Counted from the stretch's first letter, positions 1,795-60,332 are shown. The stretch is 64,000 nt of DNA from Planktothricoides raciborskii GIHE-MW2 (GCF_040564635.1 NZ_CP159837.1:35801-99800), one strand, 5' to 3'. Program-made: numbers and translations. Notes: generated by a model not told the origin, from the sequence alone.

Positions 1795-2180
1795 GAGAAA
1801 CCGGATTTCTTAATTAAATTTTTGCTAAAAGAAAAAAGTTAACGCAGAAACCCGGTTTCCTCTGGGTCTTGGGGGTTCAGAAACCGGGTTTCTTAACTAA
1901 ATCTTGGCTAAAAGCAAAAAGTTGACGCCGAAACCCGGTTTCTTGTCCCTGGGGGTGAGAAACCTCTTTGCTCTGCCCAGAAACCGGGTTTCTTGAGACA
2001 ACCTTTGCCACCAACCAACAACTTTCATAGAAACCCGGTTTCTTGTCCCTGGGGTTTCTTGTCCCTGGGGGGTGAGAAACAGGGAGAGGTGAGAAACCGG
2101 GTTTCTTTAAACAACCTTTGCCACCAACCAACAACTTTCATAGAAACCCGGTTTCTTGTCCCTGGGGTTTCTTGTCCCTG
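1795..2180. repeat. Array of ~9 copies of a 15-bp palindrome AGAAACCGGGTTTCT. The copies are arranged as ~65-bp MITE-like units and include a ~110-bp tandem duplication (1999-2070 and 2109-2185).
   Basis: Direct reading. Copies lie near 1797, 1847, 1880, 1929, 1981, 2031, 2093 and 2143. The same element occurs at 13183-13245, 26044-26110 and 55266-55350. Confidence 0.85.
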
Positions 2181-2182
2181 GT

Positions 2183-5100
2183 CTACCAAGGGCTACCAAT
2201 TAGGGTAAATGCTGCCCAATAATAAGGATGAGTTAACTTTTGGTTTTCTGCACTTTGCAAGGATTCAGGTAAGGTATAAGTGCCGCGAGAACCGCGTAAT
2301 TGACCCCCTTCAATTTCCACATTACCGTTAATCATTGATAACTGTGCTTGTCGCATGGCTTCCGCTTTAATTGGGGCAATTCCTAACTGTTTATAAAATT
2401 CAGTCATTAGGCCAAATGTACCCTCATCACTGACATACCAAAGAGAGGCGATCGCAGTTTTCACTCCTGCTTGTACGGCTAACCCAGCAAAGCCTAATTC
2501 TGCTTCTTCATTGCCCACCGCAGTCTGGCAAGCGGACAACACTAACAAATCCACTGCTGGATCGTGTAAGCCTAACTGACGAATATCATTTAGACCCAAC
2601 TTTTGATCCCAAAGTTGAATATATGAATTGCTCAAATCTCCGGGGTTAAATTCTCCGTGAGTGGCCAAATGAACAATAGGATATTGTTTCTCGGCGTGTT
2701 GTTTTTGAATATTTTGCAGGGTAAAGTCCTGATTCAAGAAAGATGCTCCCTGGCGAATTTCTTGGGTAATAATTTTCATTTCGGCGGGCACCGCAGGCAA
2801 GGGATTGAGATTGGTAAATTCACTGGCTCCCATTGCTAAAACTGATGCATTTTGAATATTTTGATAGCGGGTATCCGTCAAGCTGAGAGAAGGCATCATG
2901 CCCACACTATATTTTTGCACCAAAAAACTCTCGCCATCATGGAGGGCGGCGATCGGTAAGGTTCGCAAACCCACATCCATAATAAAGGCAATATTTTGGA
3001 TTTCTTTGGCGTCTAATTCCTCGGTTAATGGGGCAATTAACCATTGATAAAGATTTTGGGCTGGTTCTAAATATTTGGTTTGGCGGCGATATCTTGGCGC
3101 GGTGATATAAGTAATCAAATTATCGGCATTGTCCATGACTTCGCGACGAGTCACCGGCAAGACTTTTCTCACCGGACGACCATCAGCCGTCACTAAGATT
3201 AATTCCAAGGGGTCATTGTCTGTATTTCCGGCCAAAGAAGTGGGGGCAAAATAAACATATAACAAAGCAGGTTTGACCCCAGTTTCTCCTTCAATATTAC
3301 GGATAATATTTTGCGCTTGTGGCAGGCTAACATTGACCTGCTTCGACTCGCCAATGTGGTCGCTAAATGCTTGAGTAAAGCTATTTTCAATTTCCGCTAC
3401 CCCTGGATCGACAATGGCGACTTCTTGAGGACTCGCCAGATTTTCCGGTGTGATTTGCCGGACGTTTTCTTCTTCCTCTTCTTCGGTTTCTGAAGGTGAG
3501 TCTAATTCAGTGGCGATCGCCCCTACTTTTTCTGGTGGCAAAATCGATCGCGGTTCTGGTTGTACTCTTTCTGAAATTGGCACAGAAATCGGCGAATTTT
3601 TTTCCGGTTCCAGTTCTACGGATATGGGTTCTAAAGTGATTGGTGCCACTTCTGGAGTAGCCGCGATCGGCTCTGGTGCCACTTCTGGAGTAGCCGCGAT
3701 CGGCTCTGGTGCCACTTCTGGAGTAGCCGCGATCGGCTCTGGTGCCACTTCTGGAGTAGCCGCGATCGCCTCTGGTGCCACTTCTGGAGTAGCCGCGATC
3801 GCCTCTGGTGCCACTTCTGGAGTAGCCGCGATCTCTTCTGCTCCCCCGCTCCCCGGCTCCTCTGCTCCCCCGTCCGGTTCTGGGTCTAACTCCAACGATA
3901 AGGGCATATCATCCCCTGACGCTGGTGCCACTGGGGTTTCATCCACGGCTGGTTCTTCCACCACAGGCGGTTCTTCCGCAGGCGGTTCTTCCACGGGCGG
4001 TTCTTCCACGGGGGTTTCTGGTTCAGCGGTAATCACCCGAATATTCCCTTGTTCCAGCGGGCCGGGGAACGAGGAACCTAGCGGGATCGTATTATTTGCC
4101 CCAGTGGTAATCACCCCAGCAGTGCCGTTGGTCGTGGGATCGCCCACCACAAAGGGAGTATTTTGACTGCCCCCGTTGTGACTGAGACTCACATTGCCAC
4201 TTCCCCCAGCCCCGGCAGTAGAAATACTGGCAACTTGGCCATTTTGGTCGGTAAAAGTATTATTAGCGCGGAAAACGCCCCCAGTGACAATTTCAACATT
4301 GCCACCGCTGCCTCGTAAACCCCCTTGAGCATTAATAAAGCCAACATCAATAAAATCCTCTGGGTCGAGTAAGACATTCCCGCCATTTCCTACCGTACCG
4401 CTGCTATCAATATCCTCAGTGGTAATACTTGTTAATGCCTGAACGGTAATATCGCCCCCGGTTATCCCCGTAGAGGTTAAATTTCCGGTGGTGACAACTC
4501 CGTTGGGACTATTTACAGCGATCGCACCGCCAGTCCCATTAGGATTAGAACTATCCAAGTTGCCCACCGTCACATCACCAACCGGGTTGGTTAAACTGAT
4601 TAAACCCCCACTGGTTGTAATGTTGACGTTATTAGTAATTAGCTGATTATTGCCGGTTAAAATTACACTAGCACCGGCAGAATTGATATCGCCATTTAAT
4701 TCAATGGTATCCGCAGTGGCTTGTAATCCACTATTAATCAAGCCGGTAACAGTTAAACGATTTAAAGGGGTGAGATTACCCAGAATTCCCCCAAAAGAAA
4801 CGCGACCAGTTCCGGCATTTAACGTCAGCGTCCGGTTGCCATTAATCGTTCCGGTAAATATGATATCCCCAGCCCCCGCGCCAGTATCCAAAGTAAGATC
4901 GTTGTTGAGAATCATATCTCCAGCGATCGCGATCGTTTGGTTGTTGGTACTAATCCCGGCATTTAAGAACAGATTACTGGTGTTAAAATTCACCGTAGCA
5001 TTATCGATCGCAGTAATCGTTCCGTTGACCGTTACTTGCCCTGTTCCTGATTGAATTGTCACCGGATCGCTAAAGCTAATCGCCCCTAAATTTACCATCC

Positions 5101-8100
5101 CAGTTCCATCACTGCGACCAATAGTAATACTGCTAAATCCATTAGATAAATTCGCGATTTCTGCCAGAGAAATGTTAAAGGTTCCGGTTTCACCTCCAAT
5201 TTCAATGGGAGTATTTTGATTAAATGGTTGTAAGATTAAATTGCCTGGACTGGTGAGAGTATTATTTAAGGCAATAGTATCGCCAGTAAAAGTGATATTA
5301 CTGGCGGCATTAATCGCCCCGGTGGTAGAAATGCCGCCATTATTTGCCGTGACATTTAAAAGACCGCCACTGGTTAGGTTATTGTTGAGAGAGATAGAAT
5401 TTCCCGTCAGGGTAATATCTGTCCCCGCTTCAACAATTTCCGTAGAAATATCGCCATTATTTGCCGTGACATTTAAAAGACCGCCACTGGTTAGGTTATT
5501 GTTGAGAGAGATAGAATTTCCCGTGAGGGTAATATCTGTCCCCGCTTCAACAATTTCCGTAGAAATATCGCCATTATTTGCCGTGACATTTAAAAGACCG
5601 CCACTGGTTAGGTTATTGTTGAGAGAGATAGAATTTCCCGTGAGGGTAATATCTGTCCCCGCTTCAACAATTTCCGTAGAAATATCGCCATTATTTGCCG
5701 TGACATTTAAAAGACCGCCACTGGTTAGGTTATTGTTGAGAGAGATAGAATTTCCCGTGAGGGTAATATCTGTCCCCGCTTCAACAATTTCCGTAGAAAT
5801 ATCGCCATTATTTGCCGTGACATTTAAACTACCGCCCACCGTAGAACTGCCTAAATTTACTGCATTAGCACTGGTAATATTAGCATCAGCCCCAGCGCCA
5901 TTAGTATTGACCGTAATTATTCCCGGTGTTGCTAGTTGACTTAAAGTAATATCTGCCCCAATTGCAGTAGTCGTAAAAGTGCTATTTCCCCCAATGGCGA
6001 TCGGGCTATTCCCAGTAATATTGCCATTTGCTGTAATTTCTAAATTACCGGAAATGTTAGCCGTTCCTAAACTAAGAGTTTGGCCGTTATTCACAAACAA
6101 ATTTCCTGTAACATTATTAATATTTATTTGGCTAACATTTGTCTCCAAAGAATTCAACGAATCGCCCACACTTCCCGATGTATTTAAGACTACAGTACCA
6201 TTAGCGGCGATCCTGATATCTGTCCCGGTAAAAGGGCTGGTAATGCTACCAGTATTTAAAGTTAAAGTCCGATTATTACCCAAGGTAATGCCGTCATTAA
6301 ACGACACCGCCCCACCCTGTAAGGTCAGGTCAAAAGTCTGGTTACTTAAATTAACGGGACTGGCAATATTAAGCGCTCCCGTGCCACCCGTGCTACCAAT
6401 TGTCACCCCATTAAATCCACTGATTGACTGAAGTTCTGCTTCGGTTAAATTCAAACCCGGTGACTGGTTAATCCCACCGATTTCAATTGGTGAGTTATCG
6501 ATTATTGGTTGCACAAGTAAGCTGCCATTACCGGATATTGTCCCATTGATATTTAATTCCCCAGCAGTGATTTGTGGGTTGGAATTAACAAAGGTGACGT
6601 TACCGTTATATTCTTGAGTGCCAAGAGTGGTGACATTGCCATTAATACTTGTGTTTTGTCCTAATATGTTAAGACTATTCAGACGGGTATTATTACCAAC
6701 GGCGCCACCAATATTAACATTGCCAGTCCCCGCATTTAGGGTTAAATTGTAACTCCCGTCTATAGTTCCCTGAAAATCAATAGTACCAGATCCACTATTC
6801 AAAGTAGCATCAGCCCCTAAAGTGGTGTTGCCGATAATGCCGATGTTTTGATTGTTAGTAGTAATATCGGCATTTAATGTTGTTGGGCCGATGAGAGTCA
6901 CAGAAGCGTTATCATTTCCCAAAATTTGAAAATTGTTTGTAATCGAACCACCGGGAGACTGAATCGTCACTGGGTCTGAAAATCCTAGACCGGAAGTTGG
7001 CCCATCGATAGTAATGGCACCCGTACCGTCAGCCCGTCCAATAGTAATAGAATTAAAACCGTTTTGAATATTAGCTAATTCTGACTCGGTTAAATATAAA
7101 ATCCCTACTCCAGTACCTCCAGACCCTCCCAGGGAAATATTTTGCCCCACGGTGGTAGGTTGCAGAGTTAGACTGCCCGTACCAGAGATACTACCTACAT
7201 TGTTAATATTAATTTCGTCTGCTGTGAGAGTGAGGGCATTATTTCCAACAATTAAAGGAGCATTTATTTCAATTGACCCCGTTCCACCCTGAATAATTGT
7301 AGTTGTGCTTAAAGTGAGAGAAGGAGCGTTGCCGCTAATTTCAATAAAGTTTGTGGCATCAGTACGACCAATAGTAATCGAGTTAAATCCCGCATTTTGC
7401 AGTAAATTGAACTCGCTATTACCGCTAGAGTTGCTGTCCAGACATAAGAAGCCTGGACTACATCCGGTAGAATTGTTAATATAAATACCCTGATTGCTGT
7501 CCCCTTGCTGAATGACTAAATCTAGTCCGGTTTGAGTGGTGGATATAGTATTGGTATCTAAGTTAATATCATTGGCCGTAAGGGTGACATAATTGCCAAA
7601 TTGAACTGTCGGCGGACTATTAGCCCTTCCTGCTCTGCGTAAGTCAATAAAACCAATTCCCGCATCAATATTTCCATTGACGGTAATGGTGCTGTTGCTG
7701 CCAGTTTCCGCGATGAAATTTCCCCCATTGGTGGTGATATTTCCCAGATTAATTTGATTTCCTGTGCGGGAAGAATTACCCGCTGAAATTGTGATATCTC
7801 CTCCCTGTGTCACGATCGCATCCGCAGGATTCATAGTAAAATCACCGACTCCATTAAAATCAGCATCGGCGATCAAACTCACTGATCCAGCAGCACCCAT
7901 TTGCAGACTCAGGGTATTGTCTGATAAGTCTTCAATAGTGATATTGTCGGCGGCTTCTAAAATAATACTACTATTAGCCCCGATCGCTTCTAATGCCGTT
8001 TCAGAAATAGTGTAATTTGCGCCTGCGGTGAGCGTATCATCGAAAATGACTCCTTCGGGATCGCCAAAAGGTTCACCCGCATTCAATTGGTTATCATTAG

Positions 8101-9520
8101 GCGCACCACTGCCATCAACAATGGTAATATTATCTGGGTCTAATAATAAAGTGCCGGTGCTACCTTGGGGGGCGCTGGTGTCTACCTGACCTCGGAAAAT
8201 TAAATCTTGTTTGCCGGAAACTTCAACAAAGCCACCATTGCCATTTTGACTGCCACCTTTGGCGCTAATTTCTCCATGAAACCGGGTAGTTTCATCAGCC
8301 CAAATAATGACTTGTCCCCCGTCGCCATTTTCTAAAGAATCCACAGAAATCAGCGTATCTTTACTGACGAAAGTTTCTGAAGCGTTGGGGACTTCTCCTT
8401 CGCCGCGATATTCTCCTCCGACTAAGACCACACCGCCATCATCAATCCCACTGGCGTTAATAAGGGCATCGACTAAGGCAACTTTGTCCCCTAATACAGC
8501 GATCGCGCCCCCAGTCCCATTGCCATTCGTGCTGGTATTTGAGACATCAATATTACCGGAAGCCACGGTGACACCGGGATCTGTGGGTATTCTTAGGGTT
8601 GAACCTGTGAGGCTGATGGTGCCGTCATTGTTAACCGTCACGTTGGAAGCATGGGTGATGTGACCCCCAGTGAGTAAGCTGGGCAAGTCTAAGGGCTGAA
8701 AGTTTTGCGGCGGTTGGTTAGGGGAATTGTTGCCCGTGGGTGAGGTGGGAATTTCTAAGCTGAGGAGATGGTTTTCCTGGTTGATGCGAACCAGGTTTTC
8801 TCCCGGTACGGCAGCAATGGTGATATTACCACCGGGAGAGGAAAGGGTGCCTAAGTTGACGACTGTTCCCCCCAAGAGGGTTAGCTTTTGTTCGGGGTTG
8901 AGGCTGAGGTTGCCTTCATTGAGAATAGCCCCCGGTTGGGAGAGGGAAAAGGCAAAGGTGGAGGGTTCGCCCACTAAGGCGCTGTAGTTGTTGCTGCCAA
9001 AGGCGTTGAAGGCTTCTGAGTTAAAGCCAATGTTGGTGGAGGTGGTGGCGGTGAAGTCCCCTAAAACGTTGAGACTGGCGTTGGGGCCAAAAATAATGCC
9101 CGCAGGGTTCATTAAGAATAGGTTGGAGTTGCCCCCGGTGACTTGAATTAAGCCGTTAATAATAGAGGCGTTGCCCCCGGTGACTCTGCCAAGGATGTTG
9201 TTGATTTCTGGAGAGGAGAGAAAGTTGGCGGTCTGTCCCGCGTTGAGGCCAAATTCTTGGAAGGAGTGGAAGAGGTTCGCCCCGTCCCCAGACCGTTGTC
9301 CCCCGGTAATGTTGTAGGTGTTGCCGGTTTGGTTGACTACGGTTCCAGTGTTGTCAGCAGCAGGAATAGGTGCGGTTTGCGCGATCGCATTTTCGCCCAT
9401 AATGCCACAAATTACATTGATTGCCCCCAGGATTCCATAAAATATGACCAAATTTTTAGTCTTCCGAGTTATTAGTTGGGCTTCAGCCTTCCCAGTTTGT
9501 CGCTGTTGATGGTAGTTCAT
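2183..9520 (-). CDS. Giant exoprotein (2445 aa). It has an N-terminal filamentous haemagglutinin/TPS secretion domain, a long beta-helical repeat region, a Pro/Glu/Thr-rich linker and a C-terminal CHAT (caspase-like peptidase) domain.
   Basis: Complete 7338-nt ORF. The N-terminus reads NITGGQRSGDGANLFHSFQEFGLNAGQTANF (TPS-domain signature). The C-terminus reads IVHLATHGEF ... DLLVLSACQTAVG (CHAT His/Cys dyad). Internal exact repeats are present. Confidence 0.9.
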   Translation of the reverse strand: MNYHQQRQTGKAEAQLITRKTKNLVIFYGILGAINVICGIMGENAIAQTAPIPAADNTGTVVNQTGNTYNITGGQRSGDGANLFHSFQEFGLNAGQTANFLSSPEINNILGRVTGGNASIINGLIQVTGGNSNLFLMNPAGIIFGPNASLNVLGDFTATTSTNIGFNSEAFNAFGSNNYSALVGEPSTFAFSLSQPGAILNEGNLSLNPEQKLTLLGGTVVNLGTLSSPGGNITIAAVPGENLVRINQENHLLSLEIPTSPTGNNSPNQPPQNFQPLDLPSLLTGGHITHASNVTVNNDGTISLTGSTLRIPTDPGVTVASGNIDVSNTSTNGNGTGGAIAVLGDKVALVDALINASGIDDGGVVLVGGEYRGEGEVPNASETFVSKDTLISVDSLENGDGGQVIIWADETTRFHGEISAKGGSQNGNGGFVEVSGKQDLIFRGQVDTSAPQGSTGTLLLDPDNITIVDGSGAPNDNQLNAGEPFGDPEGVIFDDTLTAGANYTISETALEAIGANSSIILEAADNITIEDLSDNTLSLQMGAAGSVSLIADADFNGVGDFTMNPADAIVTQGGDITISAGNSSRTGNQINLGNITTNGGNFIAETGSNSTITVNGNIDAGIGFIDLRRAGRANSPPTVQFGNYVTLTANDINLDTNTISTTQTGLDLVIQQGDSNQGIYINNSTGCSPGFLCLDSNSSGNSEFNLLQNAGFNSITIGRTDATNFIEISGNAPSLTLSTTTIIQGGTGSIEINAPLIVGNNALTLTADEININNVGSISGTGSLTLQPTTVGQNISLGGSGGTGVGILYLTESELANIQNGFNSITIGRADGTGAITIDGPTSGLGFSDPVTIQSPGGSITNNFQILGNDNASVTLIGPTTLNADITTNNQNIGIIGNTTLGADATLNSGSGTIDFQGTIDGSYNLTLNAGTGNVNIGGAVGNNTRLNSLNILGQNTSINGNVTTLGTQEYNGNVTFVNSNPQITAGELNINGTISGNGSLLVQPIIDNSPIEIGGINQSPGLNLTEAELQSISGFNGVTIGSTGGTGALNIASPVNLSNQTFDLTLQGGAVSFNDGITLGNNRTLTLNTGSITSPFTGTDIRIAANGTVVLNTSGSVGDSLNSLETNVSQININNVTGNLFVNNGQTLSLGTANISGNLEITANGNITGNSPIAIGGNSTFTTTAIGADITLSQLATPGIITVNTNGAGADANITSANAVNLGSSTVGGSLNVTANNGDISTEIVEAGTDITLTGNSISLNNNLTSGGLLNVTANNGDISTEIVEAGTDITLTGNSISLNNNLTSGGLLNVTANNGDISTEIVEAGTDITLTGNSISLNNNLTSGGLLNVTANNGDISTEIVEAGTDITLTGNSISLNNNLTSGGLLNVTANNGGISTTGAINAASNITFTGDTIALNNTLTSPGNLILQPFNQNTPIEIGGETGTFNISLAEIANLSNGFSSITIGRSDGTGMVNLGAISFSDPVTIQSGTGQVTVNGTITAIDNATVNFNTSNLFLNAGISTNNQTIAIAGDMILNNDLTLDTGAGAGDIIFTGTINGNRTLTLNAGTGRVSFGGILGNLTPLNRLTVTGLINSGLQATADTIELNGDINSAGASVILTGNNQLITNNVNITTSGGLISLTNPVGDVTVGNLDSSNPNGTGGAIAVNSPNGVVTTGNLTSTGITGGDITVQALTSITTEDIDSSGTVGNGGNVLLDPEDFIDVGFINAQGGLRGSGGNVEIVTGGVFRANNTFTDQNGQVASISTAGAGGSGNVSLSHNGGSQNTPFVVGDPTTNGTAGVITTGANNTIPLGSSFPGPLEQGNIRVITAEPETPVEEPPVEEPPAEEPPVVEEPAVDETPVAPASGDDMPLSLELDPEPDGGAEEPGSGGAEEIAATPEVAPEAIAATPEVAPEAIAATPEVAPEPIAATPEVAPEPIAATPEVAPEPIAATPEVAPITLEPISVELEPEKNSPISVPISERVQPEPRSILPPEKVGAIATELDSPSETEEEEEENVRQITPENLASPQEVAIVDPGVAEIENSFTQAFSDHIGESKQVNVSLPQAQNIIRNIEGETGVKPALLYVYFAPTSLAGNTDNDPLELILVTADGRPVRKVLPVTRREVMDNADNLITYITAPRYRRQTKYLEPAQNLYQWLIAPLTEELDAKEIQNIAFIMDVGLRTLPIAALHDGESFLVQKYSVGMMPSLSLTDTRYQNIQNASVLAMGASEFTNLNPLPAVPAEMKIITQEIRQGASFLNQDFTLQNIQKQHAEKQYPIVHLATHGEFNPGDLSNSYIQLWDQKLGLNDIRQLGLHDPAVDLLVLSACQTAVGNEEAELGFAGLAVQAGVKTAIASLWYVSDEGTFGLMTEFYKQLGIAPIKAEAMRQAQLSMINGNVEIEGGQLRGSRGTYTLPESLQSAENQKLTHPYYWAAFTLIGSPW
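3645..3838. repeat. In-frame 33-bp tandem repeat (~6 copies) inside the exoprotein gene. It encodes IAATPEVAPEP units of the linker.
   Basis: The unit ccgcgatcggctctggtgccacttctggagtag is repeated nearly perfectly. Confidence 0.85.
5335..5830. repeat. In-frame 123-bp tandem repeat, four near-perfect copies, inside the exoprotein gene. Each copy is a 41-aa unit LLNVTANNGDISTEIVEAGTDITLTGNSISLNNNLTSGG.
   Basis: Identical 123-bp blocks start near 5337, 5457, 5580 and 5703. Confidence 0.9.
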
Positions 9521-9837: not shown

Positions 9838-10040
9838 TATTAAGTGCCGATAAGGGCGAAGCATTCAGGTAATTATCTTTCTGGTTAAAACCGATAATTA
9901 ACTGCCGATAAGGGCGAAGCATTCGGGTAATTATCTTTCTGGTTAAAACCGATAATTAACTGCCGGTAAAGGCGAAGCATTCAGGTAACAACTACTGTTA
10001 AAACAAGCAAGTTAACTGCCCGAATGCTTCGCCCCTACAG
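9838..10040. repeat. Three tandem ~63-bp units containing the motif GGGCGAAGCATTC. An inverted copy of the motif (AATGCTTCGCCCCTACAG) follows.
   Basis: Direct reading. The same motif family recurs at 21815-21885, 22100-22195, 53340-53640 and 56107-56185. Confidence 0.8.
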
Positions 10041-12617: not shown

Positions 12618-12785
12618 ACTCCCACATCTGACTCCCACATCTGGCTCCCACATCTGGCTCCCACATCTGACTCCCACATCTGGCTCCCACATCTGGCTCC
12701 CACATCTGGCTCCCACATCTGGCTCCCACATCTGACTCCCACATCTGGCTCCCACATCTGGCTCCCACATCTGGCTCCCACATCT
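12618..12785. repeat. 13-bp tandem repeat CTCCCACATCTGR, about 13 copies, directly upstream of the comFB-like gene.
   Basis: Direct reading. The period is not a multiple of 3. Track ORFs 12507-12770, 12566-12781 and 12594-12788 are repeat-translation artefacts. Confidence 0.9.
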
Positions 12786-13182: not shown

Positions 13183-13245
13183 TCAGAAACCGGGTTGCGG
13201 TAATTTCTACCCAAGATAAGAAACCCGGTTTCTGTCACCCGCAGA
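13183..13245. repeat. Pair of inverted GAAACCGGGTT/AACCCGGTTTC palindromic elements just downstream of a gene stop.
   Basis: tcagaaaccgggttgcgg...agaaacccggtttctg. Confidence 0.7.
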
Positions 13246-13246
13246 A

Positions 13247-13729
13247 TTACTCTAAAGAGCTTAATGCCCGATCTAAGATTTTTCGAGCTTCTTCAGCTTG
13301 GCTTCTGGCCAATAAATAACGCTGATTGGCTTGAGCAAAATTTTTCAGCACCTTAAATCCGTCTTTCAACTGGTTAATTTGTTCTTCCGTCACCGGATCA
13401 TCATTAAATAAGATATCGATTTGTTGACGAATTTGCAGAGCTTCTTCCTTAGTCTGAGTCATTTTTAACTTTAAAGAAGCCAAACTATTGAGAATTTGCA
13501 CCGCTTCGGTGACTGGATCGTCAATTTCTTCACCATCTAAATTGGTATTGGTATCTTTCACTTCCACAAACTGATCAGGGCCAAACCCATCAGCTAATTT
13601 CGTTTTCAACTTGCCCTCATCCATCAATTCCATTAGTTGATCCATCGCTTTATCGCGATTTTTCGGAGAATCTTTCCCGCGAACATCAATAACGATTTCT
13701 GGAGATTGGGGAATTGTGTACTTAACCAT
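13247..13729 (-). CDS. Hypothetical protein (160 aa), acidic, predicted coiled-coil.
   Basis: Clean ORF with an upstream AGGA-like region. No recognisable family. Confidence 0.55.
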   Translation of the reverse strand: MVKYTIPQSPEIVIDVRGKDSPKNRDKAMDQLMELMDEGKLKTKLADGFGPDQFVEVKDTNTNLDGEEIDDPVTEAVQILNSLASLKLKMTQTKEEALQIRQQIDILFNDDPVTEEQINQLKDGFKVLKNFAQANQRYLLARSQAEEARKILDRALSSLE

Positions 13730-21814: not shown

Positions 21815-22195
21815 AGCATGACCGCCGATATTTATGATTCAAATATAGATTTAACTGCGGTCATGCTTCGCCCTTCTATGGCCAAATATTGATGCCAATC
21901 CCAAAAATTATCCGCGCAATTAATAAATTAGCTTGAAGCATTTGCGGCCAAATACAGCGGTTATTGTCCTAATTACAGAGGTTTTATGGATTCCCGCCGG
22001 AGTTTACCCCCGCGAAGGCGTGGGGCGGGAATGACAGTTGTTTTGTAATTCATAAATATGACAATTGCTATATTGATGCCAATCCCAAAAATTATCCGCG
22101 CAATTAATAAATTAGGGCGAAGCATTTGCGGCTAAATATTGATGCCAATCCCAAAAATTATCCGCGCAAATGCTTCGCCCCTACGGATAATCTCA
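21815..22195. repeat. Repeat cluster. It contains a 17-bp perfect inverted repeat (GGGCGAAGCATGACCGC...GCGGTCATGCTTCGCCC), three copies of ~45-bp TTGATGCCAATCCCAAAAATTATCCGCGCAATTAATAAATTAG, and GGGCGAAGCATT palindromes.
   Basis: Direct reading. Confidence 0.8.
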
Positions 22196-22196
22196 T

Positions 22197-24131
22197 TTAT
22201 GTTTCTGCCAAACCCACCCCCTGTTGTTGCAAATAATACGCCACTCTTTCCCGCAATTGATCCACGGTTAAATTTTTTGTCCAATATTCCACTAAACCAT
22301 GACCAAATGCCCAAGCATTCCGGTCAGGAGAGGCAGGATTTTCTAATAACAATGGCCAAATTGCCAGTAATTCAAAATTGACCTGATTATTGTCGTTACT
22401 TAATAACGTAAACAAGTCATAAGCCATTTGTAATTTACCAATTACCATCGGCAACTGTTCAATGGGAATTTTTTCTGCTAATAAATAGGCTAAGGTGGGA
22501 TTTCCGGTAGTTAATGTCGAAATAAATTGCAATACCGGACTTTTTAATAAAGCGGTTAGCCCTTGGGTGGTGGACATTTGAAATGTGTAGCGATCGATGA
22601 TTTTGGCGGCGGCAATGGTACGAGTTTCTAAGTCTCGGAAAAACCGGGCTAACCGTAATTGTTTGACCGGCGCGATCGCCTCTATCAAACTTAAAGATAG
22701 GCTGTCAATATTCCACCCTTGCCGATCGCTTTTCGGGTCAAAACTGACCACCGGCAACACCCGATCGCAGAATTCTCCTAACATTTCCGTGCGATATTCT
22801 GTGGCTTCTCGGATCGATTTTTCCTTCGGGCGATCGCCCCAAACCCAATCATAAGGGGGTTGCCATTCGCGAATTGGACGCAGGCGATCGACCTGAGTGA
22901 CAATTGCGATCGCGGGTAAATCTTGCACCTCTTTTTTAATATCCTTAAGAAAATCCACATCCATTTGCAAAGCGGGATCTAATGCCGGAGTCACCAGTAA
23001 TAATAAATCCGCATTATTAGCATATTCTAATACTTGGTCACGCAAGTCGGATTTATTCACTTGTTCATAACCGGGACTATCCCAAAGAGTCAGAGTTTCT
23101 CCGGTGTCCGTTTGCCAATGGTAACTTTGAATGCGATCGGTACTCGGCAACACATCCACTGCGGCTAATTCTGCCTGAAATATGGTATTAATTAGACTAC
23201 TTTTCCCCGCCCCAGTTCTGCCTACTAATAAAATATTCACCGGCTTTTGCTCCACTTTTTCCGGGGGATCTGCTGCCGCCAAAATTTCTTGTAAAGTCTG
23301 CGTTTTTGCTTTCGGCAAACTAGGAGTAGATACCGCCAAATTTTCCCCTGGAAGTTGGTTGCCTCCGTAGAGTGCGATCGCCTGCCGACACAGGTTTCGC
23401 AGGGCTGCTTCCCGCACCATAAAACTCAAGTTTGCCAATAATTGCTGATTAGCTTGTTCGCTATATTTCTTACTAGCTACTCGCGCTGCCGCTGCTGCTG
23501 GGTTCACCAACCATTGTACCCACCCCCACGCTTGCATTAATTTGCGTGCCGAAGGTTCTAATTTGCGATAAATTTCATAAGCTTGATAAGCTTGCCCCAC
23601 AGTGACTTGATTCAGTACCGGGGATAATTGCTGCATCCACCGATCCATATCATCCACCGTCCCCCGAATTAAACCATAAGCTTGAGGCACATAAATATTC
23701 AGCAACGGGTATTTTACTGTTGGGTGATAAATATGGGCAACTGCTATCACCATGTCTTGACATTCTTGCCAAAAATTTTGCCAATCATCCCATATCGGGC
23801 GATCGCTTTGAGACTCTTTTAATATTTTTTGTAATGCCACTTCTGCTTTTTTGGCAGCATCATCCGCCCCTAGTTTTTGTTTAGTTTCCTCATTGATTAT
23901 TTCTATTTTTTCATTCATAGAAGCGATCGCTGCTTCTACCTCGTCAATTTGCGATCGCGTCCAGCGAACTATAAGCGATCGCCACCCCACTAAAACCAGA
24001 GTGACAACCCCCCAAATCCAATTAATCCCCCATTCGCTAATTTGGGTTCCTGCTGCTACTAGGAGAAACGTAATAATGAGGGCGATCGGGAGGGCTAAAA
24101 CCACCCACTGCCAAAGTTTTAAACGTACCAT
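22197..24131 (-). CDS. Membrane-anchored GTPase (MMR_HSR1/Era-like G domain, N-terminal 2 TM plus coiled coil).
   Basis: 644 aa. G1 is LVGRTGAGKSSLIN, G3 is DSPG, G4 is TQVD. Hydrophobic helices occur at residues ~8-50. Confidence 0.8.
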   Translation of the reverse strand: MVRLKLWQWVVLALPIALIITFLLVAAGTQISEWGINWIWGVVTLVLVGWRSLIVRWTRSQIDEVEAAIASMNEKIEIINEETKQKLGADDAAKKAEVALQKILKESQSDRPIWDDWQNFWQECQDMVIAVAHIYHPTVKYPLLNIYVPQAYGLIRGTVDDMDRWMQQLSPVLNQVTVGQAYQAYEIYRKLEPSARKLMQAWGWVQWLVNPAAAAARVASKKYSEQANQQLLANLSFMVREAALRNLCRQAIALYGGNQLPGENLAVSTPSLPKAKTQTLQEILAAADPPEKVEQKPVNILLVGRTGAGKSSLINTIFQAELAAVDVLPSTDRIQSYHWQTDTGETLTLWDSPGYEQVNKSDLRDQVLEYANNADLLLLVTPALDPALQMDVDFLKDIKKEVQDLPAIAIVTQVDRLRPIREWQPPYDWVWGDRPKEKSIREATEYRTEMLGEFCDRVLPVVSFDPKSDRQGWNIDSLSLSLIEAIAPVKQLRLARFFRDLETRTIAAAKIIDRYTFQMSTTQGLTALLKSPVLQFISTLTTGNPTLAYLLAEKIPIEQLPMVIGKLQMAYDLFTLLSNDNNQVNFELLAIWPLLLENPASPDRNAWAFGHGLVEYWTKNLTVDQLRERVAYYLQQQGVGLAET

Positions 24132-24274
24132 TGTTTAATAAACCGGGTTTGTGTAATAACTTTGCCATTATAACGAATTACGGTTTTTGATTTAGGGGCA
24201 ATATTGTATGATATACTGGATACAAAAGCTACCATATCTGAAGAATACATGATCATTTCGCGTTCGGGTGGAAG

Positions 24275-25423: not shown

Positions 25424-26035
25424 AAATTGCTATAAAAATTGCTATTTTGGTTGAAGGAGATACTGAAGTTGCATTTCGGGAAAAATTTCGGGATTTTCTG
25501 ACAAGTCATTTAGGGCAAAATATGCCCAAGCTGAAATTTATTCCCCAGCATGGTCGTATTCCCAAGGAAGGGAAAGCGTATGGTAGAAAATCTTTTAGAC
25601 AATGATGACTATGATGCTGTCATTGCCCTGACAGATGTTTACACAGGAACAAATGATTTTCAAAATGCGGCTGATGCTAAAGCTAAAATTACTAATTGGG
25701 TGGGAAACAACCCAAGATTTTATCCCCATACAGCATTACATGATTTTGAAGCATGGCTAATTCCTTACTGGGATACGATCCAAAAATTGGCCAAACATAA
25801 TCTTTCTGCTCCCAGTGGTTCCCCTGAAAGGGTGAATCACAATAACCCTCCTGCTGAGAGAATTAAAGATATTTTTAGAAGGGGAAAATGTAGCAGACAC
25901 TATAATAAACCCATTGATGGCAAAGCGATTTTAAAGAACAACGATTTAATGGATGCGATTCAAGCTTGTCCAGAGCTAAAAGCTTTTGTGAATCGAATTA
26001 TTTTTCTGTGCGATGAAACTAAAGTAATTCCTTGA
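25420..26035 (+). pseudogene. DUF4276-family gene partnered with the ATPase, interrupted by a +1 frameshift near 25550-25600.
   Basis: The start overlaps the upstream stop (ATGA). The N-terminal part MKIAIKIAILVEGDTEVAFREKFRDFLTSHL and the C-terminal part DYDAVIALTDVYTG...ALHDFEAWLIPYW...NHNNPPAERIKDIF are in different frames (track ORFs 25390-25605 and 25550-26035). Confidence 0.65.
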
Positions 26036-26043
26036 AGAAATCA

Positions 26044-26110
26044 ATAAACCGGGTTTCTGAGATAATTGTTGGATTGTCACCAAAATCTTTCAGAACAAAC
26101 CCGGTCTCTG
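26044..26110. repeat. GAAACCGGGTTTC palindromic element pair between convergent genes.
   Basis: aaaccgggtttctgag...cagaacaaacccggtctctg. Confidence 0.7.
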
Positions 26111-26243: not shown

Positions 26244-27761
26244 TTAATCCAAAGGCCCAAAATACTCCGAGGTAAAATTGCCGTGCAATCCGTAAGGAAT
26301 ATGATAATTCAAATGCAAGCGGGCTACAGGTTCTTTATGCAAATTCCGCGCATCCAAAATCACTAAATCGGAACGATGATGGGCGGCATCATAGACTAAT
26401 ACTAACAGCCAGCCATCATCTTCTTTACTGCTGCCAGGACGGGGGACAAATACAGGTTCACCGACAAACCCACGGGGGGCAGCACTCCAAACTTGCTGTT
26501 CTCCGGTTTTTTGGTCAAGTTTCAGAATTGCTTGAAATGGGGCATTGCCACTATGATTGTGAGTGGTGCCAATATACAGATACCGATAGGAACGTCCCAC
26601 ATTATTAGGATTAATTTGCGGAAATTCACAGGCGCGAGTGGTTAAGATTTGATGCTCTACTTGATGCTCTACTTGGCTAGTTTCTAAGTTGGCTTGGAAA
26701 CGCCATAACTGTCCTGGAGGATATTGCTCAAAATCCACTTCCCGAAAATCAATATCCGGGTCTAAGGATGGGTAAGAGTCATAACAAATCGAGTCAATAA
26801 ATAGCCGCTCGCCTTCTTCCCAAGCATTGCCATGATGGAAGACAAAACAAGGCTCGGTTTCCAGTATTTTCACTTCTCCTTGGCCATTGCGGGGAATTAA
26901 AATCACTTTGGTTTTGGCTTCCCGGTTAAATTGAATACATTCCCCTGCACTCGACCAGCCTAAGATAAATTTTAGGGGATTGAAGCTAACTGGATTTTGG
27001 AAAAAGATACAGTAATTTTCCGTAATCGCCATATCATGCAAAAAGGCAAATCCAGGCAGAGAATGAGCTTGACGGCGGAGTAATTTTCCGTTCGGATTAA
27101 ATTCATAAATGGTAATCGTGGTGGATGGCCCTGCTTTGACGGAGAAATTCACCAAACAAGGGGCGCCGCCATCCATTGCACAACTGGGGTCAAACCGAGG
27201 ATGGGCGGCAAAAGGTTCCCCTGGTTGTAAAATTCCCCCTAGGTCATCAATGCCCAAGGTTTCTAACGTATTTGGATCGAGGCGATGGGGTCCTTCTGCT
27301 TCCCATAAGGCTAACAGTTTGTTGCCCCAATAAATAATATTGGTGTTGGCAATATTTTTCAGTTTTAAGTCAAATAAATTCGCCAGCCAGCCCCCTGGTT
27401 TTTGGGTGCCAAATACGCCGCGATAGAGAATTTTTCCGGCGGCTTGTTCTTTGACAAATCCTTCAGTGCGAACAAAGCGATTGCTAAAATAGGCTCGCCC
27501 ATTTTTAAAGGCAATTTTGACAATCATGCCATCCCCATCAAAGGGGTGGGCAATAGGCTGACCGTTGACATCACTTAATCCTGGGCCATTTCTAAATAAT
27601 GTGCCGTTGAGTTCTGGGGGAATTTGTCCCTCAATATTTTCAATCCAATAGTCGGTTTCTTGGGTTTGGGATTCGTAGCCTCTTTTCCAGTCTTGGCGAT
27701 TATAGGGTTTAATTTCTGTTTTGATGTTTTGGCTGGTGGTTAAACGGTCTTGAGTTTGCAT
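26244..27761 (-). CDS. Carotenoid cleavage oxygenase (apocarotenoid oxygenase, RPE65 family).
   Basis: 505 aa with conserved His-containing beta-propeller blades (FHHGNAWEE, HPRFDP, FAHDMAI-like segments). Confidence 0.9.
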   Translation of the reverse strand: MQTQDRLTTSQNIKTEIKPYNRQDWKRGYESQTQETDYWIENIEGQIPPELNGTLFRNGPGLSDVNGQPIAHPFDGDGMIVKIAFKNGRAYFSNRFVRTEGFVKEQAAGKILYRGVFGTQKPGGWLANLFDLKLKNIANTNIIYWGNKLLALWEAEGPHRLDPNTLETLGIDDLGGILQPGEPFAAHPRFDPSCAMDGGAPCLVNFSVKAGPSTTITIYEFNPNGKLLRRQAHSLPGFAFLHDMAITENYCIFFQNPVSFNPLKFILGWSSAGECIQFNREAKTKVILIPRNGQGEVKILETEPCFVFHHGNAWEEGERLFIDSICYDSYPSLDPDIDFREVDFEQYPPGQLWRFQANLETSQVEHQVEHQILTTRACEFPQINPNNVGRSYRYLYIGTTHNHSGNAPFQAILKLDQKTGEQQVWSAAPRGFVGEPVFVPRPGSSKEDDGWLLVLVYDAAHHRSDLVILDARNLHKEPVARLHLNYHIPYGLHGNFTSEYFGPLD

Positions 27762-38699: not shown

Positions 38700-38768
38700 G
38701 TGCTGAATATTTGCTGAATATTTGCTGAATATTTGCTGAATATTTGCTGAATATTTGCTGAATATTTT
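38700..38768. repeat. 11-bp tandem repeat TGCTGAATATT, 6 copies, at the serpin 5' end.
   Basis: Direct reading. Confidence 0.85.
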
Positions 38769-39225
38769 GTTTGGGATTTGTTAAAGGAAAGTGTCCGGGC
38801 AATCTCCGCTTGTCCTTGATTCAATTTACACCCTGTTTTTGAGGCAAATGTCAGCGGTCTTTCCCGGCTGAAAAGTCTGAGCTTAAAACCGGGGGCGATG
38901 ACGATGAAAAGTTTGAGCATCAGCGAGAGTGCCGAAAGGCTAATCTGCCGATCGCAACGGAGCGATCGCCGTCAAAATCAGCCACTTCATCTATATTGTC
39001 CATTGATCAGAAGCGACTTTCCCCCAACTAAACACCCTATCCGATTCTAACCAACTGGCTGCTTGCAACGGCTCAACAGAATCAACTGTAGCATTTTCCA
39101 ACTGATAACGCTAAAGGAAAAGGAATTGTTTCCAAGTCTATGGGACTCCTCAACTCTCTATCAGTCATGGGGCAGACTTCTTGCCCTCAATCCAGCAAAC
39201 CGGATCAACGATCGATTCTCAAACC

Positions 39226-39305
39226 AATCTCAGACTAATCTCAGACCAATCTCAGACCAATCTCAGACCAATCTCAGACCAATCTCAGACTAATCTCAGA
39301 CTGAA
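39226..39305. repeat. 11-bp tandem repeat AATCTCAGACC, about 7 copies.
   Basis: Direct reading. Track ORF 39063-39293 is an artefact. Confidence 0.85.
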
Positions 39306-53299: not shown

Positions 53300-53640
53300 A
53301 TGGATATAAATAATATAAATAATATAAATATACATATAAATATACCCGTCCTGGCGAAGCATTCGCGGATATACCTCTACGACAAATACAACGGTTTTAT
53401 GCTGTATATAAATATACCCGTCCTGGCGAAGCATTCGCGGATATACCTCTACGACAAATACAATCGTTTTCGTTCCGGTAAGCTTTCGCCATGCCAAAGG
53501 CTATATGCTTTGCCTCTACATATACGCAAATACAACGGTTTTATGCTGTATATAAATATAGTCCGAAGGGCGAAGCATTCGCGGATATATTTCTACGAAA
53601 AATACAATGGTTTTCGGCGCGAATGCTTTGCCCCTACTAC
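53300..53640. repeat. Tandem ~70-bp repeats (3-4 copies), each containing the palindrome GGCGAAGCATTCGCGG and ACAAATACAACGGTTTTATGCTGTATATAAATAT.
   Basis: Direct reading. Track ORFs 53288-53665 and 53297-53497 are artefacts. Confidence 0.85.
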
Positions 53641-53790: not shown

Positions 53791-55263
53791 ATGTCTAATT
53801 CTGAACCACTTTCTGATAGTGCAATTAATGGCCAAACAAATCCAGAAGACCGGGAACTGGAAGAAGCCATTTTAACTTTTGCGGATATTCAAGCCGACCT
53901 GAACTATAAACAAGCGAAAGACTCCCTAAGAGAATTAGTCATTCATCTTGATTTAACCCCCAAAGAACGGGAGGGGTTAGAGTCAGAAATTAGCGGCTTA
54001 GAAACCATGCTGGATAAATTAGAACGCACCGTAGTTCAGATTGCAGTATTTGGCATGGTGGGACGGGGAAAATCTTCTTTACTGAATGCTTTAGTCGGGG
54101 AAAATATCTTTGAAACAGGGCCAATTCATGGGGTGACACGCACTATTCAAGGAGTGAATTGGCGACTAGATCGATTTTCTGGCGATCGCGGCAATATTAC
54201 TCAATTAACCCTTTCTGGCGTGGGGAATTCTCAAATAGAATTGATTGATACTCCGGGAATTGATGAAGTAGACGGAGAAACTCGCGAAACTTTAGCACGG
54301 AACTTAGCCGCGAAAGCAGATTTAATTTTATTTGCTTGTGCGGGGGATATTACCAAAGTCGAATATCGCGCCCTTTCCCAACTCAGAGATGCGGGAAAAC
54401 CGATGTTATTAGTCTTTAATAAAATCGACCAATACCCGGAAGCTGACCGATTAGCGATTTATGAAACTATTCGCGATCGCCGAGTCCGCGAAATCTTATC
54501 TCCCGATGAAATTGTCATGGCTGCCGCCGCACCTTTAGTCGCCACGGCGGTTAAAAGACCCGATGGCACTTTTGGGGTAAAAATGGAACGGGGACAGCCA
54601 CAAATTGAGGAATTAAAGTTAAAAATATTAGAAATATTAGACCGAGAAGGTAAATCTTTGGTCGCCTTAAATACCATGCTGTATGCGGGAGAAGTGAATG
54701 AGCAATTAGTCGAAAGAAAAATGAAAATTCGGGAAACCGCCGCCAACCGAGTTATCTGGAATGCCGCGATCGCCAAAGCCCTAGCCGTAGCCCTCAACCC
54801 CGTCACCATCATCGATCTTCTCAGTGGGGCGGCGATCGATGTCACCACCATCCTCACCTTATCCCGACTTTACGGCATTCCCATGACCCAACAGGGCGCC
54901 ATCAACCTGCTGCAAAAAATCGCCCTCAGCATGGGTGGCATCACCGCCAGCGAACTCCTAGCCAACCTGGGACTATCCTCCCTCAAAGGCTTATTGGGCA
55001 TTGCTGCCCCCGCCACAGGTGGCGCCTCCTTAGCCCCCTATCTTTCCGTGGCCATCACCCAAGCCGGAGTAGCTGGGGTGTCCTCCTACGGTATCGGTCA
55101 AGTCACAAAAGCCTATCTCGCGAATGGGGCATCCTGGGGGCCTGATGGACCAAAAGCGGTGGTGAGTCGGATTATTGAATCCCTCGATGAAACCTCAATT
55201 ATGGGTCGAATCAAAGCCGAATTACAAGATAAATTATTTGGGCAGAAATTAGAGCTAGATTAA
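53791..55263 (+). CDS. GTPase with a C-terminal hydrophobic DUF697-like domain.
   Basis: 490 aa. G1 is GMVGRGKSSLLNAL, G3 is DTPG, G4 is NKID. The C-terminal half is Ala/Gly-rich and hydrophobic. Confidence 0.85.
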   Translation: MSNSEPLSDSAINGQTNPEDRELEEAILTFADIQADLNYKQAKDSLRELVIHLDLTPKEREGLESEISGLETMLDKLERTVVQIAVFGMVGRGKSSLLNALVGENIFETGPIHGVTRTIQGVNWRLDRFSGDRGNITQLTLSGVGNSQIELIDTPGIDEVDGETRETLARNLAAKADLILFACAGDITKVEYRALSQLRDAGKPMLLVFNKIDQYPEADRLAIYETIRDRRVREILSPDEIVMAAAAPLVATAVKRPDGTFGVKMERGQPQIEELKLKILEILDREGKSLVALNTMLYAGEVNEQLVERKMKIRETAANRVIWNAAIAKALAVALNPVTIIDLLSGAAIDVTTILTLSRLYGIPMTQQGAINLLQKIALSMGGITASELLANLGLSSLKGLLGIAAPATGGASLAPYLSVAITQAGVAGVSSYGIGQVTKAYLANGASWGPDGPKAVVSRIIESLDETSIMGRIKAELQDKLFGQKLELD

Positions 55264-55265
55264 AG

Positions 55266-55350
55266 TAAATCAGAAACCAGAAATTCAGAAACCGGGTTTC
55301 TTTAATAAACCTTGGCTAACCAGCAAAAATTATCGCAAAAACCCGGTTTA
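55266..55350. repeat. MITE-like unit: GAAACCGGGTTTC ... AAAACCCGGTTT flanking ~40 bp, homologous to the units at 1800-1945.
   Basis: cagaaaccgggtttctttaataaaccttggctaaccagcaaaaattatcgcaaaaacccggttt. Confidence 0.8.
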
Positions 55351-55472
55351 TTCCTAAACTCCTTTGTGTCCTCTGTGTCTTTGTGGTGAATTATTCATTA
55401 ATGCCAATGGGCAAATTTATCCAGATGATGTAAGAATCTTTATATTTTAGTCGCAGGGAATCTGCCTTAATT

Positions 55473-56094: not shown

Positions 56095-56290
56095 GCCCAA
56101 GCGTAGGGGCGAATGGCCATTCGCCCCTACAGTTAATATTCTAAGTCATAATTTGTCTGCCGGAATGCTTCGCCCCTACAGGTGTTTGTGGTTTATTCAA
56201 TAGAAAAGCGCTGTAAACCCGACACCTCTTACCCTGAGCCTGCCGAAGGGCGACACCTCTTACCCTGAGCCTGCCGAAGGGCGACACCCT
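56095..56290. repeat. Repeat cluster: the 28-bp perfect palindrome GTAGGGGCGAATGGCCATTCGCCCCTAC, AATGCTTCGCCCCTACAG, and a 2x ~37-bp tandem (CGACACCTCTTACCCTGAGCCTGCCGAAGGG).
   Basis: Direct reading. The same 28-bp palindrome occurs at 18417-18444. Confidence 0.85.
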
Positions 56291-60197: not shown

Positions 60198-60332
60198 GTT
60201 GATTTTACCTATTGAGAAATCACAGGACTTATATGGTTGTTTGTTATTGGTTGTTGGTTATTTGCTAGTTGCCTAACACGAATAACGAATAACGAATAAC
60301 GAATAACGAATAACGAATAACGAACAACCAAT

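Follow-up and report, generated by a model that had tools for sequence, protein, structure and literature searches.

Classical REPs, which belong to RAYT groups 2 and 3 and are cut by RAYTs of the E. coli type, are defined by a conserved 5′ GT[AG]G beside the palindrome. In the REPIN-RAYT systems of Pseudomonas fluorescens SBW25 and of E. coli (TnpA-REP, 4ER8), a short, high-copy, extragenic imperfect palindrome is arranged in inverted doublets of fixed spacing that fold as one long hairpin, a Y1/HUH RAYT gene lies between the same repeats, and no target duplication is made (PMC3116915, PMC3337134). TIRtrons, the elements of the TIRYT enzymes (Di Nocera et al. 2013, PMC3733652), which correspond to RAYT subclass 2.1 (PMC6006769), have inverted repeats that flank a RAYT-like gene without GTAG REPs; self-complementary members of this set make up families of dimers or clusters. 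No REPs were found adjoining subclass 2.1 genes (Quentin et al. 2018, PMC6006769). The BIMEs of E. coli are clusters of alternately oriented REPs with two linker classes that lie downstream of genes, with copy numbers that differ among relatives. Bacterial MITEs, among them the cyanobacterial Nezha as well as Correia/NEMIS, ERIC, and RUP, are small, non-coding elements with inverted ends that occur near gene ends and form hairpins when transcribed; in MITEs, such hairpins can affect mRNA. Filamentous cyanobacteria also have very small repeats with hairpin potential and nested or tandem contexts, the small dispersed repeats (SDRs) of Nostoc, attributed to Elhai et al. 2008.

Here, we analyzed a 64-kb stretch of DNA from Planktothricoides raciborskii GIHE-MW2 (referred to as the window), in which an earlier note, made from the sequence alone, had described palindromic mini-elements. 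They are real and are copies of a dispersed family that is non-coding, forms hairpins, and has sharp boundaries: the 13-mer GAAACCGGGTTTC, allowing one mismatch or fewer, has 21 strand matches in the window versus 0.12 expected. The elements very probably represent REPs, arranged as REPINs and BIME-like clusters, of a conserved RAYT-type (Y1/HUH) system of filamentous cyanobacteria. The system is of a known kind, and the family itself is previously undescribed; a full-text literature search for the arm sequence returned unrelated papers only, and keyword searches gave no description of the family. Apart from the GT[AG]G of classical REPs and the absence of REPs beside subclass 2.1 genes, the features given above for REPIN-RAYT systems, BIMEs, TIRtrons, MITEs, and SDRs are those in which the present elements resemble them, with linkers of ~35 nt within units and 17 to 35 nt between units in place of the two BIME linker classes, with enzyme motifs that fit subclass 2.1, and with the SDRs compared by description.

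An array and single units in the window

The window contains seven units. Fifteen distinct sites in the 64 kb match the 15-mer arm with three or fewer mismatches, versus ~1 expected (30 strand matches versus 2.3 expected). Each unit has the layout AGAAACCGGGTTTCT, an interior of ~35 nt, and AGAAACCCGGTTTCT. The REP arm is a 15-nt near-palindrome, AGAAACC(G/C)GGTTTCT, whose center base, G on the 5′ side of a unit and C on the 3′ side, breaks the symmetry. The two arms of a unit are mutual reverse complements, each self-palindromic save for the center base, and the G in one and the C in the other mean that each unit is an inverted doublet. The window units are predicted to fold on both strands as a long hairpin with a minimum free energy of -17 to -30 kcal/mol (z -2.7 to -6.6), in which arms ~50 bp apart form a 15-bp stem and a hairpin of ~65 nt on either strand.

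Between the stop codon (2183) of a TPS/CHAT gene on the minus strand and the start (~1743) of a second TPS gene, positions 1796-2156 consist of four tandem, head-to-tail units of ~65 bp, all assigned to the minus strand. The earlier note had called the flanking genes exoproteins, and both encode a TPS (two-partner-secretion) domain. It had also counted about nine palindromes here; the array stands, but the count resolves into eight full arms, which make up the four units, together with partial arms and two 16-bp duplications. Unit A (1796-1860) has arms at 1796-1810 and 1846-1860 and a 35-nt interior in consensus orientation on the minus strand, and folds with -23.5 kcal/mol on the plus strand and -29.4 kcal/mol on the minus strand (z -4.5 and -6.6, respectively). 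Unit B (1879-1943) is 89% identical to A and folds with -30.5 kcal/mol. The linker that follows (1944-1978) contains a partial arm, GAGAAACC, at 1957-1964 and forms a small hairpin of its own with the end of unit B (stem 1937-1964).

Units C (1979-2043) and D (2092-2156) represent a second interior subfamily. The interior of C, which differs from that of A (69% identity to A), is close to those of units at locus L217 and beside the RAYT gene of Planktothricoides sp. SR001. Unit D is 98% identical to C, and D plus its linker form a 113-bp tandem duplication; the 110-bp duplication proposed earlier is therefore real as the C/D pair, with a period of 113 bp. The units of ~65 bp proposed earlier hold as well, whereas the conserved core assigned to them, TAAnTAAATcTTGGCTAA, is common only to A, B, and the unit at 55287. 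A second partial arm occurs at 2074-2080. Two tandem 16-bp duplications, each GGTTTCTTGTCCCTGG ×2, lie at 2037-2070, where the terminal part of the unit C 3′ arm is copied again, and at 2150-2181, which stops 2 bp short of the stop codon of the TPS/CHAT gene (2183). This 16-mer, duplicated exactly, comprises the last 7 nt of the 3′ arm and 9 nt of flank, and the flank “ttgtccctgg” also follows units in L053, L223, and L228; the duplications could have come about by slippage or could be a trace left by processing at the end of the arm.

Single units occur where the earlier note had placed them. The short unit at 13185-13233 has a 21-nt interior and a 5′ arm with two mismatches, and follows the stop of gene 13247-13729 (minus strand) at a distance of 14 bp. 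A degenerate unit at 26044-26109 (plus strand; -24.4 and -27.3 kcal/mol) is located between the convergent genes 25550-26035 (plus) and 26244-27761 (minus); look-up of the protein of gene 25550-26035 returned no record. The unit at 55287-55351 (minus strand), whose 3′ arm has three mismatches, follows the stop of the GTPase gene 53791-55263 (plus) by 24 bp. All four unit loci in the window lie 9 to 27 bp past a stop codon, and the single units 9 to 24 bp past one. The claim that the elements are always at 3′ ends was nevertheless too strong, given a lone arm, ATAAACCGGGTTTGT, at 24138-24152, between the 5′ ends of divergent genes, one of which encodes a dynamin-like GTPase (22197-24131, minus) and starts 7 bp downstream of the arm. 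This arm is the sole copy in the window at a 5′ end.

The repeat family across genomes

We scanned one genome per species for both arms, exact and 15 to 45 nt apart, and found the unit at at least 120 loci in other genomes. Nearly all of the loci listed are in filamentous cyanobacteria, including Oscillatoria, Microcoleus, Lyngbya, Kamptonema, Tychonema, Arthrospira/Limnospira, Spirulina, Calothrix, Brasilonema, and Leptolyngbya-like genera, and some are in Chloroflexota. Twelve of those listed are in MAGs labeled Chloroflexota (taxon labels as given in the records) with a G+C content of 55 to 69%, versus a cyanobacterial mean of 46.5%, and these copies have interiors of their own, 31 to 34 nt long. 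Because the cross-genome sample was ascertained with exact arms, the conservation of the arms within it is overstated. The unit was absent from the viral contigs searched. The DNA of the window itself has a G+C content of 43 to 46% and contains HIP1 octamers.

The distance from G-form to C-form arm has a sharp peak at 50 bp (49 to 51 bp in 132 of ~200 pairs), and interior length, which ranges from 3 to 41 nt, peaks at 37 nt (36 to 38 nt in 101 of 154 units among the loci listed). An A precedes and a T follows the 13-mer in 98% of cases, and conservation is gone beyond these bases, so that the element ends are sharp. Interiors are varied, and approximately 60% of them follow, in one orientation or the other, the loose consensus TGCGATAAtTTTGG-N8-CaAAGATTTgGTTAA. 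The 8-bp inner stem that this consensus suggests is paired in 64.8%, with covariation not above controls (36 of 500 shuffles reach its score); the similarity of interiors is therefore best read as the result of probable common descent rather than of selected structure.

To place units relative to genes, we used greedy heuristic ORF calls on the loci listed (at least 120 being known) and on the window. The 101 classifiable sites comprised 34 convergent, 60 tandem, and 7 divergent contexts, versus shares of background intergenic bases of 19%, 55%, and 26%, respectively. Units lie mostly 10 to 130 bp downstream of stop codons, with a median distance of 42 bp to the nearest stop versus 154 bp to the nearest start, and are essentially extragenic (7 of ~108 sites fall inside a heuristic ORF call). 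The bias to gene 3′ ends that the earlier note had reported is thus real when checked relative to stops, but it is not absolute. A gene for a Uma2-family (DUF820) endonuclease adjoins a unit or RAYT gene at L002, L040, L044, L106, L109, L114, and L220, and is a neighbor at ~6 of 108 unit sites, which may simply reflect the size of that family in cyanobacteria.

Clusters recur in other genomes, with at least 10 units in L053 and periods of 81 to 87 bp in L061 and L218. The linker is repeated along with the unit in L053, L040, L218, and the C/D pair of the window, which argues that arrays come from tandem duplication of a unit together with its linker and not from self-targeted insertion. Judged from such repeat patterns, the arrays grow by tandem duplication as the BIMEs of E. 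coli do; REPs classically cluster in this manner, and the arraying that the earlier note considered unusual is not so. At orthologous Microcoleus loci, the unit is kept in place and the copies number 3 versus 1 and 2 versus 1. In an empty-site comparison at 13185, the unit was identical in six sister-strain contigs, with no empty site among them. Across these six strains and the Microcoleus loci we saw no change in unit position; only tandem copy number varies.

A RAYT gene between the same repeats

A contig of Oscillatoria sp. HE19RPO (L053) carries more than 10 units that resemble the window units in interior and linker, and a 186-aa ORF lies between two of its unit arrays. This ORF matches Pfam Y1_Tnp (PF01797, E 9e-12) and the NCBIfam model NF047646, REP_Tyr_transpos, “REP-associated tyrosine transposase” (81.6 bits, with a cut-off of 80), and a profile of its relatives matches the E. 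coli TnpA-REP (PDB 4ER8) at E 8e-8. Its HUH motif is NHYH and its Y motif is RYIHLNP; the RAYT relatives compared have an invariant NHYH and, in common, a Y motif of the form RYIH-NP. The search for a cognate transposase or DNA-binding protein, which the earlier note had suggested, thus led to a Y1 transposase of the RAYT type with the same repeats on both sides. At E≤1e-10, it has 7936 relatives, of which the best 120 are 60 to 94% identical to it across orders, are mostly 186 to 190 aa long, and bear the names Microcoleus, Kamptonema, Planktothrix, Desertifilum, Nostoc, Calothrix, Spirulina, Crocosphaera, and others.

We compared L053 with eight further loci of close relatives, seven obtained by exact look-up and one from metagenomes. 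In 9 of 9 cases (L053 included; at least 61% identity), arms of the form GAAACC(G/C)GGTTTC are present on both sides of the RAYT gene, 8 to 65 bp from its coding sequence at both ends, with one to five units per side. These loci are L053, L137, L217, L222, L223, L228, L218 (Kamptonema), L220 (Nostoc PCC 7524), and L221 (Calothrix parasitica). Tight doublets with a loop of 3 to 5 nt occur beside the RAYT genes of L137, L142, L221, and L226, and so the 35-nt interior is dispensable.

The repeat changes with the enzyme. RAYTs at least 61% identical to that of L053, fetched as close relatives, carry GAAACCSGGTTTC, and the RAYT of L138 (62% identical) has related but diverged arms. Beside the more distant RAYTs of L139 (55%) and L142 (49%), on contigs with a G+C content of 57 to 64%, are doublets of GAAACC(A/T)GGTTTC (GAAACCWGGTTTC), which also accompany a RAYT of Chloroflexi/Anaerolineaceae name (L226) that is 57% identical to that of L142. 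Unrelated palindromes or REPIN-like hairpins in the same layout are found at four metagenome loci (L141, L143, L144, and L145; identity of 62% or less) and at L224, labeled Anaerolineae. Since distant RAYTs carry GAAACCWGGTTTC or unrelated palindromes, the repeat tracks the lineage of the enzyme, a pattern that, on sequence comparison, would be expected if the enzyme recognizes the repeat. At L224 (940-2100; Anaerolineae MAG, GCA_037045275.1), the RAYT relative lies between long arrays of GTTCAACTTCTCCGAAGAAGTTGAAC with a period of ~50 to 70 bp, and these arrays are a separate REPIN family in Chloroflexota.

There is no RAYT gene in the 64-kb window. In the assembly of Planktothricoides sp. 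SR001 (GCA_001276715.1), contig LIUQ01000087.1 (L228) encodes a RAYT, KOR33875.1, with 10 arms upstream and 5 downstream of its gene, the nearest at 42 and 24 bp, respectively, and the units near it include the interior subfamily of window units C and D. Two proteins of the window are identical in this assembly and in many metagenomes (one of them in L122). The presence of a repeat-flanked RAYT and of exact window proteins in the same assembly places the cognate RAYT of the window elements in the window's own organism, its gene lying outside the window in the same genome. One 90% RAYT cluster, that of one of the close relatives, contains two proteins from Planktothricoides sp. SR001 and two from P. 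raciborskii GIHE-MW2, and most RAYT clusters were seen on one to four contigs; at least two Planktothricoides paralogues fit the picture of a single-copy, “domesticated” enzyme less well. Some of the Planktothricoides RAYT proteins in this group (P0245-P0251, 90% cluster 4) are annotated as 263 aa instead of 186 aa, possibly from start-codon calls that run into the upstream repeat array. Many RAYT genes are on contigs of <1 kb, consistent with the breaking of assemblies by flanking arrays.

Comparison with described systems

In several respects the family departs from the systems to which it is closest. Unlike the REPs of the described REPIN-RAYT systems, the cyanobacterial REP lacks a 5′ GT[AG]G tag (of 284 arms, 8 have the tetranucleotide within 6 nt outside the arm and 5 on the inner side), has a length of just 15 nt, and is almost perfectly palindromic; its doublets enclose interiors from 3 to 5 nt (L137, L142, L221, L226) up to ~37 nt, and one REP is common to many genera and orders and to some Chloroflexota instead of being species-specific. 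The motifs of the cyanobacterial RAYT, NHYH, FQ, and YIHLNP, are not those of Bertels groups 2 and 3. Lack of the GT[AG]G tag, the location of the RAYT outside the window, and the fact that no movement was seen count against the REPIN-RAYT reading. The conservation of one REP across orders and in another phylum, unlike that of species-specific REPs, could instead reflect a function at the level of the host.

By a motif-only assignment (NH[YF]H, FQ, Y[IV]HLNP), the RAYT resembles the TIRYT-like enzymes of subclass 2.1/group 1, which also counts against the REPIN-RAYT reading because no REPs were reported beside genes of subclass 2.1. It differs from them in its length of ~188 aa without the C-terminal HTH extension, and its repeat family is large and widespread, whereas TIR families are reported to be moderate and rare (PMC3733652). 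Many TIRtrons carry the motif GGGGWSAS, which here abuts only 9 of 379 arms. The linkers of the present clusters are unrelated in sequence to those of BIMEs, whose classes are defined by binding of IHF, gyrase, or Pol I. As for the SDRs, they are reported to be 21 to 27 nt long, with other sequences, and are not known to have an associated enzyme.

Alternative explanations

The earlier note had called the elements MITE-like, and their 15-bp inverted ends, small size, variable interior, and dispersed intergenic copies would suit a classical MITE, that is, a deletion derivative of a DDE-type insertion sequence that moves by cut and paste via 15-bp TIRs with target-site duplication. However, direct duplications of ≥4 bp are absent from the ends of all 98 isolated units (2-bp duplications number 10 versus 6.0 in permutations), an outcome expected for HUH Y1 enzymes, and within ~1 Mb of flanking DNA we found neither a complete element bounded by these ends nor a DDE transposase that recurs. 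In that DNA, no long-range arm pairs bound an autonomous element (pairs enclose a Uma2 gene or nothing), and clustering of ORFs around the loci listed (at least 120 being known) gave only large paralogous families (kinases, NACHT/TPR, Uma2, TnpB) with no consistent neighbor. Both hallmarks of MITEs, target-site duplications and a DDE-transposase parent, were thus looked for and not found, and for this reason we do not regard the units as classical MITEs. The ends are, in addition, palindromes themselves, and the gene they flank encodes a Y1 HUH enzyme; that the elements are MITEs is very improbable. Even less credible is that the arrays encode small structured RNAs or are processed into RNA repeats. 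Tandem 65-nt hairpins do resemble arrays such as NsiR1 and have folding z scores of -2.7 to -6.6, but no Rfam family matches at gathering score (relaxed E-values return generic miRNA-precursor-like hairpins only), the inner stem is without significant covariation across interiors of 3 to 41 nt, and the orientation of the interior relative to neighboring genes is variable. Two other ideas were discarded. The ends do not fit the RYYYAAC/GTTRRRY of an integron attC site, and no cassettes lie between array units; parS, a transcription-factor site, and a DNA-uptake sequence were dropped once the link to RAYT appeared.

An intrinsic terminator consists of a G+C-rich stem, a loop of 3 to 8 nt, and a U-tract directly after it. 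Hairpins selected by the host with no transposase involved, acting as bidirectional terminators, stabilizers of mRNA 3′ ends, or binding sites of a conserved host protein, and retained at gene ends by selection, would account for the strong bias to 3′ ends and convergent genes, for the same hairpin on both strands, and for arms that are far better conserved than interiors or intergenic DNA at orthologous Microcoleus loci and in two phyla. Such hairpins would also suit cyanobacteria, which lack Rho and in which the majority of 3′ ends are unexplained (PMC12642595). Against this, the units have a loop of ~35 nt and no U-tract after the stem (positions +1 to +8 after units are rich in G, A, and C, not in T), and none was called by an intrinsic-terminator scan that itself showed no excess over shuffles (28 versus 22.7); the terminator role suggested in the earlier note is thus speculative. 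A terminator needs no fixed 15-nt sequence, and a like 3′-end bias is known in REPs and MITEs as survival bias. Moreover, the repeat co-varies with the lineage of the neighboring RAYT, which selection for termination does not predict. We consider an origin from host selection alone improbable.

Proposed mechanism and implications

The mechanism we propose for a REPIN-RAYT system of this kind is modeled on the biochemistry of TnpA-REP and of IS200/IS605 TnpA (PMC6006769, PMC3337134). A RAYT encoded elsewhere in the genome would recognize the arms where they fold in single-stranded DNA, such as that at replication forks, and would cut and rejoin at the arms, copying or moving doublets in trans without target duplication. 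Copies would survive mainly just downstream of genes, where harm is least, and clusters would then expand or shrink through tandem duplication of unit plus linker. Hairpins at RNA 3′ ends and substrates for recombination are putative side effects.

Such a system would account for a prominent repeat that is scattered over the gene ends of bloom- and mat-forming cyanobacteria and that interrupts assemblies, with several RAYT contigs being <1 kb. It would also supply, from sequence comparison, a probable exact DNA partner for the widely annotated, uncharacterized cyanobacterial “REP-associated tyrosine transposase.” A REP that lacks GTAG and spans orders is a useful contrast to the proteobacterial systems that underlie the REPIN/RAYT model, and its hairpins are candidates to consider when unexplained cyanobacterial RNA 3′ ends are mapped.

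A stronger version of this reading, which we think unlikely and put forward tentatively, is that of a REPIN-RAYT partnership of unusual age and slow evolution, in which one 15-nt REP and one RAYT of ~188 aa were kept across filamentous cyanobacteria and shared with Chloroflexota. If so, the hairpins might have been co-opted by the host for the formation or protection of 3′ ends in Rho-less cyanobacteria, and might also be places where accessory cassettes land or recombine, the Eco29kI-like restriction-modification pair at 55287 being an example. It would also follow that a RAYT of the supposedly “REP-less” subclass 2.1/group 1 type drives a large REP family.

Strain variation and other repeats near the units

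In sister strains (L121-L128), a cassette of ~1.9 to 2.2 kb that encodes an Eco29kI-like restriction endonuclease and a C5 DNA methylase lies between the GTPase and RNase_T genes (window positions 55264-55472; for example, L128 1757-3950). The window, L129, and L130 have the hairpin unit only at this site, which makes it a strain polymorphism. In L128, the cassette is bracketed by units; its left breakpoint falls inside a unit interior, after ttaataaaccttggctaa, and, on the right, the methylase ORF contains the arm of the unit within its 3′ end. Accessory cassettes may use units as sites at which to recombine or land.

A second dispersed family in the window is based on GGCGAAGCATTC, with 11 matches at one mismatch or fewer versus 0.34 expected, at 9839-10033, 22116-22179, 53334-53632, and 56163-56174; the motif also occurs in L040. 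Its copies form inverted pairs ~52 bp apart and tandem arrays with periods of 58 bp and 72 bp, and it looks like another REPIN- or MITE-like family. Short tandem repeats are abundant in the window as well, including a 13-mer ×12.8, 11-mers ×6 to 8, and a heptamer ×8 (12619-12785, 38701-38767, 39217-39301, and 60278-60332). Intergenic length downstream of gene 13247-13729 is variable among strains (L131-L136), with the start of ComFB at locus position 2571 to 2795. The two TPS-domain exoprotein genes that border the array are themselves in tandem (2183-9520 and 1-1743, both on the minus strand); the complete one, 2183-9520, encodes 2445 aa with a terminal CHAT protease-like domain and contains in-frame repeats of 117 bp ×4.4 and 33 bp ×5.8.
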